A stretch of 64,000 bases of DNA, taken from Octopus vulgaris. Its lineage: Eukaryota. Positions 796-39,661 of this stretch are shown here, one piece after another (position 1 is the first letter of the stretch; each line of letters begins with the position of its first letter). Location of the stretch: NCBI GenBank assembly GCA_951406725.2, contig OX597815.1, positions 23,994,001-24,058,000 on the forward strand. Direction: 5' to 3'. The translations under genes and the position numbers were made by a program. The notes under the pieces were generated by a model. It saw only the letters and a list, made by a program, of their open reading frames with translations. It was not told the DNA's origin and did no database searches.

Positions 796-2468
796 TCAAG
801 TACATCTTTGCCTGACTTCACACCACCATTACTACCACCACCAATCACCCCCATCACTCCTTCCCAATTCTTGGCTGTCTTTAGTGGAGTCCACTTTGTT
901 GCAATTATTTAGGTTATGTCTCAAGCCGGTGAATAAATCCATCCCTCCCTCGGAGACTCCGAGAAAAAAAATTGGTAAAGTGGAACAAGATTGCTTTTGG
1001 GGCACAGGAGTCGGAGGTTCCCTCGAAATTAAGGTTGGTAAGATGAAGTTTTATTTTAGGGAAGAGCTCGGCAGATAGTCAAAAATCTTTCCTTGACGTT
1101 CTGATCCTCGGATCAAAATAATGGTCGAGGTCCTTCTTATAGGCTCTTCTTACATTATAGAAGCTTCTCTTCCTCCTCTGACTAAACTATAAAGCAATAA
1201 CAAATAAAAAGAAACTCCTGTTATTGTACTGATCAAGGAAGAATGAAAGAAATTCAATCCAAGTCTACTCAGAACGAAACAAAAGTCACGTAATAGTCAA
1301 ACGTTCTAGTTTGTCTACAAGCTCACCTTCATCTTCAAACGAAATGTTAATTACTCTACATTCAGCTAAGCTTTTACGTCCTTGCAGTTAGAGAAGGTTG
1401 GATCGCAATTGGTTACGAATACAATTCTAACAAATAACACTTTTATCAACGATGGAATCTACGATGCCGTACGACCTGCTATAAATAGTAACCGAATTTC
1501 CATCACTGTTCAGTTACCGACTTAAGAAAAGGAAAGTATTGAATAATGTCTTAAATGCACTATATGCAAAAGCAGAAACAAAGACGAGATGGTCTTTTAT
1601 TATTGATTTCATTCAGATATCACCTGGTATCACAGTGATATAAACGTTTTACGTCTAGGTAGAGCTTGTTCTCAACATTTTAGGTTTCTGGGGATATCAT
1701 TATCACAAAACAAACTTGTTTCAATGACATCTTATATCCATCAAAAATATAACCTATCTCTTTCCTTGTTATACTTGTCTCAAAACCCACTATATACACA
1801 TGCATATGTATGTATGTATGTATATATATGTGATGCATATATATCACCAGGTGGCGTCTAGCGGCATAATTTTATCTGTACAAACAATGTACAACAACAC
1901 ATAAGGCGCCTCCAGTTGTAACCTAATGGAATGTAGAGATAAAATATACTATTTAAAAAATATCATTATCGGAAGTAGTGTGCTGTGTTTGTGTCTTTCC
2001 ACGTCTCACATTCTCTGAAACGTTTACGTTTGCCTCTCTCTCTCTCTCTCTCTCTCGATTTGCATTGAGACCCACCTGCAAGTAATTCAATTCAGAAGCC
2101 AAAAGCTGACATATCTTCCAAGATGTATATTTACATTCAAAGCTATAAGACAAAATAAAACAATTCATATACATACATACATATATATATATATATATAT
2201 ATATATATATATATATATATATATATATATAATATTCTATAGTTATATACATAATTAGAATCAGGGGTCAGCTAATTGCTTCGCCAAGTACCGAAATTAG
2301 AAATACTCCCAAAAATATACAGCCGAATGTGAATACATATTTATCTTTTAAACCCACGTGTGTGTTACGAAATATCCCGCAGCAAACTGCAGTTTTGGTC
2401 AGGGAGTAAGTTAAAATTTTTATAATGATAATATAGGGTAAGATTAATTAATTAATCAATCAATTGAT

Positions 2469-2878
2469 GGATGTTTTCGGTTTGAACGGCAGTTTTTTAA
2501 AATAATTTCCACGTAACTAAACACTTTTAAACTTCGTTTACTGGTAGAATGTGTTTATAAAACATCTTTTTCTCTTGGCTTTATTGATAAAATTCTATAG
2601 TTTGTAAGATATTTGTTGTTTTTTCCTTCAATTTCTGCAATTTCAACCAATCAATGACATCTATTGAGGTAAAAAAAACATTCTGTGCCTTATGAATATG
2701 TCCCTCGTTTAAGAAACAGATTGGGTTTATTTACATTTGTGACGAAAAAAATATACCCTTCCCCCTACCCCTAACCCTAACCCAGATTGAAATGCAATAG
2801 ATCGATACTAGGTTTATTATGATTGACAATTTCATATGACACCGCTAGAAAAAACCGCCGTTCAAACCGAAAAGATCC
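2469..2878. mobile_element. MITE family M, copy 1 (GG...CC termini, ~27-bp TIRs, internal CCCTAA repeats)
   Basis: TIRs ggatgttttcggtttgaacggcagttttt / aaaaaccgccgttcaaaccgaaaagatcc; homologous to 29784-30193 and 31109-31551. Confidence 0.9.
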
Positions 2879-3096
2879 ATTCTACCAATTAGTCAGTACG
2901 TTAAAATAACCTTTGTTGGTGAATTATACAAAATATTCTATAATTATATACATAATTATAATCAGGGGGTTAGCTAGTTGCTTCACCACGTACCGAAATT
3001 AGAAATAGACGCTAATGTCATTTCAACTACGGTCGAGTATCAGTTATGATCGCGTACATATTTAATCCTAACACTCGCAAATTTATAATTCAAAAT

Positions 3097-3158
3097 GTCA
3101 TACTGAGGAGAGAAATGAGTAAATATAATTTACTTTAATCTCGAAACGCGTCTGTGAT
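3097..3158 (+). ncRNA. Minimal type-I hammerhead ribozyme
   Basis: Stem I GUCAUA/UGUGAU, core CUGAGGA, stem II GAGA..UCUC with an inner AGUAAAU/AUUUACU hairpin, then GAAA, palindromic stem III ACGCGU, and a GUC cleavage triplet ending at 3152. Confidence 0.8.
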
Positions 3159-3533
3159 TAATCGAAATCGTGTAGTTTCATCATTTTTCTTTTTGCCTAC
3201 ATAAAAAAAAAGTGTTATTGTCTCGAAGATACTTATGGAAGTTGAAATGACATTAGCGTCTGTTTATAATTTCGGTACGTGGCGAAGCAATTAGCTGACC
3301 CCCTGATTATAATTATGTATATAATTATAGAATATTTTGTATAATTCACCTAAAAGGGTTATTTTAACGTACTGACTACTTGGTAGAATTATTTATTATT
3401 AATCAATTAATTAATTGATTAATTAATTAATTAATCTTACCCTATATATATTATATTATATTATATTATATATATATATTATATATATATATAATCTTAC
3501 CCTATATATATTATATCCCTCATATGGTGGTCA

Positions 3534-38311: not shown

Positions 38312-38890
38312 TATAGGTACACCAACGGTAAACAACATGAAATACGAAAACAAATGAGTTAAGTACGCAAATAACGAAAGAAAAAAAAGGGCAAGTGATA
38401 CGAAGAGTGACCCTTCATCAGTTGTCGGCTGTCTATCTACTCCTCATTTTGAGCTATCAACGACAATATGAGTCTTCGAAGACAATTGCTCCCATAAATA
38501 CCAAAATAAAATTTTGGATTTATAGAGGGTCAAAATTTAGGAACAAAAACAGGACTGTGGAGACATAGAGGGAAACCGAACAAAAACAAACGTGGAGGGT
38601 CGTTACCCCTGAACGAGGGGAAAAAATGAACGCCGAGAAAAATATTTTCTTAGAAAAGAGAGAAAATAGGAGAGATAGGAGACGTCCAGTCCTTAGAACG
38701 TCTGTGCAAGAAAGAAAGATGGTCACGTGAGGGAAAGAAAGCTGGACGATGGTCACGTGTGAGCAAATAGATAGAGAAAAAGAGAAAGGGGGAGAGAGAG
38801 ACAGACAGAAAACGGGGAAAGGGAGAAAAGGGGAATTGGAGAGGATGGGGAGAAAACAGTATAGAGTAGAGTCGCATCAAATAATAATAT
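38312..38890 (-). mobile_element. Probable (TA)n-bounded pLTR-like cassette with a partial hammerhead core
   Basis: Bounded by long (TA)n; minus strand GACAA-CUGAUGA-AGGG (38426-38411), but no GAAA. Confidence 0.35.
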
Positions 38891-39076
38891 AAATAATATG
38901 TATATATATATATATATATATATATATATATACATACATACATATATATATATATATATATATATATATATATATACATATATATATATATATATATATA
39001 TATATATATATATATATATATATATATATATATATATATATATATATATATATATATATATATATATATATATATA

Positions 39077-39310
39077 CAATTGCAGCGTGGAAGGTGTTTA
39101 TAAGCCATTTAAGAAACACACAAAAGCCGTTCGATTCACTCCAACATTTAAGTTTAATTTGTCAAAATATTTTCGTCGCTAAAATCCGCGACCTGTTCAC
39201 TGACAGTGAATCGAACGGCTTTTGTGTGTTTCTTAAATGGCTTATAAACACCTTCCACGCTGCAATTGTTTTCGTTTCAGCACACGATCTCAGATCAAAT
39301 TACTTGCTAT
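39077..39310. mobile_element. Fold-back cassette: perfect 64-bp inverted repeat around a variant hammerhead
   Basis: 39077-39140 is the exact reverse complement of 39205-39268; (TA)n on both sides. Confidence 0.85.
39160..39205 (-). ncRNA. Type-I hammerhead ribozyme candidate with a G3:C8 swapped core
   Basis: UGUCA-GUGAACA-G-GUCGC(ggauuuua)GCGAC-GAAA-AUAUU-U-UGACA. Confidence 0.7.
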
Positions 39311-39523
39311 AACTATATATATATATATATATATATATATATATAACTATATTTATATATATATATATGTGTGTGTTTGTGTGTGTGTGTGTGTATATAT
39401 ATATAAGAGATAATGGTGTCATTAAGACCCAAAGGTGTCAGATAGTGCTGAATAAATGCTATAGACAGACCATAGTTAACTTCCAGATTCGGTAATATTG
39501 CGAATAAAGAGTTCAGCGTGTGA

Positions 39524-39661
39524 ATATAAGAATTTTTTGCGTAATAAGATAAAAAAGCCAAGGCTGTGTAGATAATAGAGCGTTTATAGATATCTGTAAA
39601 TGCTCTAATATCTACACAGCCTTGGTTTTTTTTAATCTTATTACGCAAAAAATTCTTATAT
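39524..39661. repeat. Loop-less ~138-bp palindrome
   Basis: Centre agat|atct at 39591/39592; arms pair with 3 G-U, 1 mismatch and a small length difference in a homopolymer run. Confidence 0.93.

Follow-up and report, generated by a model that had tools for sequence, protein, structure and literature searches.

We analyzed a 64,000-nt stretch of the Octopus vulgaris genome (contig OX597815.1, positions 23,994,001 to 24,058,000 of the forward strand; hereafter the window), which carries several short cassettes with hammerhead ribozyme motifs among (TA)n microsatellites. With a probability of roughly 0.85, these cassettes are short insertions of the hammerhead-bearing pseudo-long terminal repeat (pLTR) ends of several Penelope-like elements (PLEs), namely families B, C, and D and likely also E, together with a 530-nt non-coding unit, family A, that was likely copied in trans. 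An earlier note on this DNA had placed all of them in a single class of ribozyme elements, non-autonomous and mobilized in trans by a PLE reverse transcriptase (RT). This view is not supported, as B, C, and D have coding PLE parents and only A is a non-coding tandem. The set as a whole is real and abundant, and consists mostly of ordinary PLE ends in (TA)n plus one retrozyme-like family. Its unusual parts are the G3:C8 core of family C, the A6U core of family E, and the 5′ end shared by short C copies, often with a non-templated G.

By a strict descriptor (core, stem II of at least 4 bp, palindromic stem III, and stem I of at least 4 bp), three minimal type I hammerheads in the window are complete, their cores lying at 3103 (+), 27832 (-), and 39200 (-). 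Two hundred local shuffles of the window gave a mean of 0.015 matches (197 with zero, three with one). Minimal descriptors are short, and repeat-rich DNA might be thought to produce such motifs by chance; the excess over shuffled sequence, the family-wide conservation of the motifs, and their location in the pLTRs of coding elements refute this explanation, to which we give practically no credence. All six motifs of the earlier note were located where it had placed them, with the palindromes it had given, but they are not equally complete. The copy at 27582-27616 has a core broken by G5A (CCAACGA) and the motif at 14407-14444 has U at position 6, so that both fail the strict descriptor. The motif at 39160-39205 reads GUGAACA rather than CUGANGA, a G3:C8 swap that is the norm of family C, and that at 10515-10526 is a 5′-truncated half hammerhead belonging to family D, complete copies of which carry CCGAUGA (U4C). 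The family A hammerhead (3097..3158, +) has the core CUGAGGA, stem III ACGCGU, and a predicted cut after C3152. At least four sequence families had been claimed and we found five, A to E, the fifth being represented by the motif at 14407-14444 and being kin to, yet distinct from, the tandem family B near 27.5 kb. All five are multicopy in the genome and their cores are conserved among copies, contrary to the single-copy cassettes or unconserved motifs that the earlier note had named as grounds for giving up the idea. None of the 143 Rfam matches of the window at E ≤ 10 was to a hammerhead family, and the microRNA matches among them were set aside as microsatellite and fold-back noise. A 67-bp tandem repeat at 34745-34891 (-) contains CTGANGA and GAAA words; having neither stem II nor a palindrome, it is no hammerhead by the descriptor.

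Families B, C, and D represent the pLTR, at the 3′ side, of PLEs that code for protein. Since other genomic copies of them extend upstream into PLE reading frames, the window copies are 5′-truncated or pLTR-sized PLE ends. The claim that none of the cassettes encodes a protein therefore holds for the window copies, where tblastn with five PLE protein queries gave no match, but fails for families B, C, and D genome-wide. The link to PLE coding sequence that had been proposed was borne out by longer copies with RT and GIY-YIG open reading frames (ORFs) for B and C, and with endonuclease and thumb regions for D. An upstream walk from family B led to a GIY-YIG C-terminus, and at locus L337 an ORF remnant that is 88% identical to an 884-aa RT-endonuclease protein is followed, after about 2.2 kb, by a window-type B end matching the two copies in the window at 93% and 86%; L335 and L336 are alike in this. 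The 884-aa sister family is young, with many long open frames, and forms 6.2-kb head-to-tail tandems that have the same hammerhead in both pLTRs and join (TA)n at the last pLTR; no full-length C or D element was among the fetched loci. Very young B-type PLE arrays with the 884-aa frame and the 6.2-kb head-to-tail layout (L327-L333; G000:C10:97805000-97825000) show CA-repeat-rich sequence over about 3 kb on the 3′ side, and a hammerhead with U4C and a GUC cut triplet. For family C, all five wide inverted pairs that were fetched enclose an ORF (up to 524 aa) bearing motifs of both RT and GIY-YIG, and a homologue has a weak RVT_1 match. For family D, the cassette lies about 1 kb downstream, in the same orientation, in 13 of 20 loci found via the endonuclease protein. 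Read directly, this endonuclease has a CxCX5C linker, no CCHH, and CxxC and CxH near its C-terminus, and the homologue P0121 has RWK, DKT, and YRDD motifs (RWK and DKT seen in P0121 only). By these motifs, D would belong to the Hydra clade as defined in PMC8557442; B and C, with the linker CX2-5CxxC, would be of Neptune/Nematis type, an assignment made from motifs alone.

The genome also holds intact PLEs, for example one with a 781-aa RT plus GIY-YIG frame supported by Pfam (GIY-YIG profile searches used PF01541), to which the family C protein is similar at E=6e-9. This family was excluded as the parent of A to E, its pLTRs carrying a U3:A8 hammerhead of their own. It is young, with many equally scoring copies (L151-L170); its minimal hammerhead has stem III ACAUGU, and several copies show a second long open frame upstream. 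A further PLE family, whose core is of the canonical CUGAUGA type and whose stem III is not palindromic, is represented by its end at L011 (-, ~2074), L030 (+, ~1261), and L045, the last with 48% protein identity to family C.

Among the window families, only A behaves as a non-coding tandem unit. A natural head-to-tail dimer with a period of 530 nt occurs at L174, with both cores intact and stem III ACAUGU, and L360 is also a tandem. In twelve of 30 loci picked on the hammerhead region, the copy's sequence upstream of the core exceeds 200 nt and enters the terminal part of the preceding unit. Family A thus has the organization by which non-LTR retrozymes are defined, tandem non-coding units that each bear a hammerhead, and its copies are mostly dispersed and 77-89% diverged from the window copy. 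No collinear PLE ORF was detected in 61 loci with five PLE protein queries. Two PLE protein matches near A were set aside, that at L036 as lying on the opposite strand and that at L045 as separated from A by a microsatellite and the end of another family. Family A is likely a retrozyme-like unit copied in trans by a PLE.

Each genome DNA search scored 40 candidates out of hundreds to thousands; first-look candidates numbered 726 for A, 2332 for B, 910 for C, 1229 for D, and 857 for E, with 40 scored per family. Forty evenly spaced 10-kb pieces (L369-L408, 400 kb of the 2.8-Gb genome) gave ten B matches, four C matches in two loci, one weak A match, and no D match. Extrapolated from ten matches in 400 kb, family B would have about 7 x 10^4 copies genome-wide, and an exact 41-mer of family C occurs 647 times. 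The same pieces hold eight descriptor matches, including hammerhead families that are absent from the window, such as one with a U3:A8 core and stem III ACGCGU and another with a C3:G8 core and stem III ACAAUUGU.

It had been stated that every motif abuts (TA)n. Contact is made by the 3′ ends of the cassettes and not by the hammerhead motifs themselves. In sets not selected on the 3′ end, (TA)4 follows directly in 22/29 B, 27/30 C, 10/16 D, and 11/29 A copies, vs. 4.7% of random places (one B, no C, four D, and one A locus were left unscored), and the evenly spaced pieces gave 7/10 for B and 2/4 for C. Five clear target-site duplications, AT-rich and 11-14 bp long, were selected by eye in B and C copies outside microsatellites. 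This enrichment, taken with the duplications, suggests that (TA)n is likely a target and not merely a tail. Different families often stand side by side in one (TA)n run, nested in each other's tails (L067, L085, L116, L174, and L364).

The ends of the copies bear on how they were made. The 3′ ends are discrete: one in B (83/107 matches), two in C (~+125 and +183), two in D (+124 and +242), and three in A, positions being relative to the hammerhead core. Families C and D show both an inverted, 5′-truncated arm and alternative 3′ ends (a tail). Among copies not selected on the 5′ end, 24 of 48 from family C begin at -26 to -17, five are long, and none begins at the cut site (+36). In family B, 17/29 begin at -84 to -63, and 2/29 no farther than 3 nt from the cut site. 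Neither B nor C thus showed 5′ ends enriched at cleavage sites; C ends at ~+60 were rejected as cleavage products, being fold-back junctions at a shared short word. Since the 5′ ends of B and C lie upstream of the ribozyme, without a peak at the cut site, they argue against a cleaved or circular template for these two families, and the copied RNA usually still held the whole hammerhead. At L217, just upstream of the match, a family C inverted arm reads as the 3′ end joined to the 5′ end over six letters, a single case that could reflect a template jump or a circle.

The likely course of insertion would begin with the GIY-YIG endonuclease of a PLE nicking (TA)n or other AT-rich DNA. RT would then initiate where the pLTR ends, from any of two or three fixed positions, leaving alternative 3′ ends, and would either halt early or run to the 5′ end of a short pLTR transcript, a template that was likely uncleaved. 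Template jumps could append an inverted truncated arm or a tandem copy. Under such a scheme, the hammerheads are predicted to be carried along as passengers rather than to drive mobility. The discrete 3′ ends of the octopus families match the tail signature that the accessible text of PMC11167929 (Frangieh et al., 2024) traces to two internal RT start sites.

The ribozyme cores differ by family among genome copies spanning the motif, in sets picked by similarity (those of E from by-catch matches). The leading forms are CTGAGGA (20/57) and CTGAAGA (10/57) in A, CTGACGA (49/97) and CCGACGA (23/97) in B, GTGAACA (101/105) in C, and CCGATGA (37/51) in D; in E, T occupies position 6 in 21/25. The hammerheads of A, B, and C have all the features of the minimal type I form (core with a 3:8 pair, stems I and II, palindromic stem III). 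In D, position 4 is changed (U4C) and stem II has a G-U closure plus an additional A; the E hammerhead departs at A6. Co-folding two family A copies gave a hammerhead dimer with the palindromic stem III as the lowest-energy pairing, and a stem III helix was also obtained for D. The hammerheads are predicted to cut solely as dimers or with the help of protein. Lunse and colleagues are said to have described, in 2017, small PLE hammerhead variants that cleave as dimers. We found no literature report of a natural G3:C8, of a family-wide A6U, or of an extra G at the ends of short copies, in a search that did not cover Lunse et al. 2017, which may list G3:C8 or A6U, or Repbase and Dfam.

Whether all of these ribozymes still cut is a separate matter. 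Some, such as E with A6U and D with U4C, may be catalytically dead relics retained merely because they belong to the pLTR or because they fold into a protein-binding structure, a possibility that we hold to be rather unlikely. Changes at A6 and U4 reduce activity in natural hammerhead variants, among which U3:A8, A6C, and U4C are known from the accessible part of PMC3088659; of nine retrozyme dimers tested, eight showed no cleavage (Li, Clavereau and Pollet, 2026; bioRxiv 10.64898/2026.07.22.740005, as far as its accessible text goes), and insertion in vitro does not depend on cleavage (PMC11167929, accessible part). However, position 7 takes all four letters in family E, yet G5, G8, A9, the stems, and GAAAC are kept, and the octopus genome has families with a C-G, a U-A, and a G-C pair at 3:8, which points to selection on an active fold. 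A different alternative, namely that all families are retrozyme-like, with tandem transcripts that self-cleave and circularize and circles that are reverse-transcribed in trans, is improbable. The organization of A fits it (a non-coding 530-nt unit, dimers, and copies longer than one unit), and animal retrozymes have been proposed as PLE derivatives in the accessible portions of PMC7229834 and bioRxiv 10.64898/2026.07.22.740005. A retrozyme, however, has no coding parent and a unit that runs from cut site to cut site. The ORF links of B, C, and D already contradict this for those families, as do the 5′ ends that B and C have upstream of the ribozyme, and the route through cleaved circles envisaged in the earlier note finds no support in the latter two. 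The two B copies of the window tandem, one of them with a broken core, are linked by (TA)5, and the retrozymes that form circular RNA in the accessible text of PMC7229834 are defined by canonical hammerheads.

More compatible with PLE ends, and able to coexist with them, is the idea that short C copies, and perhaps short B copies, form a self-propagating class resembling short interspersed elements (SINEs), in which a capped RNA of ~205 nt, begun in the pLTR 22 nt before the core, would be copied whole by PLE protein and could be transcribed again. We regard this as possible but doubtful. It would account for the one dominant C 5′ end, seen also in older copies of 84-90%, at which 16 of 30 copies selected by a 37-mer alone stop, the other 14 continuing upstream into the long form. 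It would also account for the G that replaces the T of the long form in 11 of these 16, and that occurs in 166 of 490 exact matches across the genome. Copying of a cap by RT would yield an extra G, as in long interspersed elements, and the G may accordingly mark a capped transcript that starts in the pLTR. The B ends, in turn, cluster near TCATTC, a word resembling the initiator consensus. On the other hand, short and long C copies match identical exact 37- and 41-mers and so give no sign of a separate lineage, four of the 11 G cases can derive from an adjacent inverted arm or target duplication, and transcription from long copies alone would yield identical products. The fixed end also resembles a 3′ splice site (branch-like CTAAC, pyrimidines, TAG), an alternative for which we found no conserved upstream exon beyond one G and no joint listed there in four contig sets. 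The wider joint proposal, that family C is a young PLE whose natural G3:C8 swap completes the C-G, U-A, and G-C series in one genome and whose pLTR would make a short capped RNA copied whole as a SINE-like ribozyme element, and that E would be a natural working A6U hammerhead, is drawn from sequence and we offer it only tentatively.

Several results count against the interpretation of the cassettes as PLE ends plus one unit copied in trans. The RVT_1 and GIY-YIG matches of family B are below curated cut-offs, the family C protein itself has no Pfam match, and in eight long loci of family D only the thumb and endonuclease parts were seen, without the RT core. For family E, tblastn over 17 loci gave matches in five, none tied to an E copy as an upstream ORF, and E is likely a PLE end. 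An ORF-bearing parent of A could have been missed, since only 40 of the candidates in each search were scored. Co-folding of B, C, and E copies gave no hammerhead dimer or stem III helix. An automated search found duplications outside microsatellites in 4/107 B, 5/145 C, 3/92 A, and 0/72 D matches, most sites being microsatellites. Finally, the fixed 5′ end of short C copies is compatible with propagation on their own.

The overall pattern, PLE ends with minimal hammerheads, is already published (PMC4209133; PMC8557442; PMC11167929), and the likenesses given here refer to the accessible parts of the papers cited. Metazoan PLEs carry minimal hammerheads of many families within one genome, most of them stemming from truncated elements (Cervera and de la Pena, 2014; PMC4209133). 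The octopus families share with them this multiplicity, the palindromic stem III, an extra nucleotide after A9, and the prevalence of single motifs and of opposite-strand pairs 100-700 bp apart. The U3:A8 variant is likewise common to that work and to the octopus 781-aa PLE family, whereas the accessible part of its text is silent on G3:C8, A6U, and a shared 5′ end among short copies. Endonuclease-bearing PLEs (Craig et al., 2021; PMC8557442; Arkhipova et al., 2013; PMC3846280) resemble B, C, and D in having RT with a C-terminal GIY-YIG domain, partial tandems, an inverted truncated arm, a tail, and (TA)n targets, and the linker motifs of B, C, and D are those of PMC8557442. The second 3′ end, however, lies about 57 nt (C) or 118 nt (D) past the first, farther than the 30-40-bp tail of known PLEs. 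For PAc Poseidon of Anolis, in vitro, uncleaved RNA is the main template and RT has two internal start sites (PMC11167929). Common to PAc and the octopus families are a tail, which in the latter would likewise stem from two RT start sites, AT-rich targets, a template that in the octopus was likely uncleaved too, and no ends at the cut site. The C3G/G8C change is a laboratory rescue mutant in PAc and the natural state in family C, and hammerheads that lie over the start codon in PAc are placed within long non-coding 3′ regions in the octopus. Animal non-LTR retrozymes (Cervera and de la Pena, 2020; PMC7229834; bioRxiv 10.64898/2026.07.22.740005) share with A a non-coding unit, a type I hammerhead per repeat, monomers and dimers, and intact PLEs in the genome. 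Unlike those of PMC7229834, family A, which is known from DNA alone, has a minimal rather than canonical hammerhead and mostly dispersed copies, and the parent pLTR was not found. Thirty-one recently active PLE families have been reported in an octopus (PMC13282606), in a main text whose accessible part contains neither 'hammerhead' nor 'ribozyme'.

In the window, family A is a single complex insertion adjoining (TA)25 (2181..2230). Inverted pieces (2231..2468, -), one of which spans the junction of two 530-nt units by blastn against the natural dimer, are interrupted by an unrelated element resembling a miniature inverted-repeat transposable element (MITE), with terminal inverted repeats of ~30 bp and a small number of CCCTAA repeats (2467..2880). 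The inverted arm resumes beyond it (2879..3030, -) and is followed by the sense copy, which ends in a TA-rich repeat (3047..3447, +). Directly after it, at 3520-4500 (+), is a remnant of the RT frame of a non-LTR retrotransposon, which we take to be RTE-like. The family D 3′ fragment (10503..10597, +), the end of a Hydra-type PLE by its motifs, starts within stem II and is flanked by (TA)10 and (TA)31. The family E cassette (14365..14545, +), with the core CUGUCGA, is followed by (TA)16. Two family B copies, putative 3′ ends of a Neptune/Nematis-type PLE, stand head-to-tail across (TA)5: the one with the broken core (27481..27690, -) has its 3′ end at (TA)7, and the other (27700..27905, -) has an intact hammerhead at 27802-27836. 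The family C copy (39076..39205, -), the 3′ end of a young RT plus GIY-YIG PLE, has (TA)49 at its 3′ end (38978..39075) and is joined at a short shared word to a 5′-truncated inverted arm (39205..39310, +). A family D fold-back (39405..39662) comprises the region 3′ of the hammerhead, which it does not include, with a longer tail on one arm. An inverted repeat at 59848-60582, with arms of ~350 bp (80%) and (TA)n on its flanks, may be a fold-back PLE end or a MITE.

As a class, these cassettes are ordinary for a PLE-rich animal genome. The natural G3:C8 core and the family-wide A6U core provide test cases for how much change the hammerhead core tolerates, and for why PLEs retain a ribozyme that may be dispensable for their insertion. 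From DNA alone, a PLE promoter would be located by the fixed 5′ end and its extra G. Lastly, the young PLEs with long intact frames and the putative Hydra-type family widen the known range of these elements.

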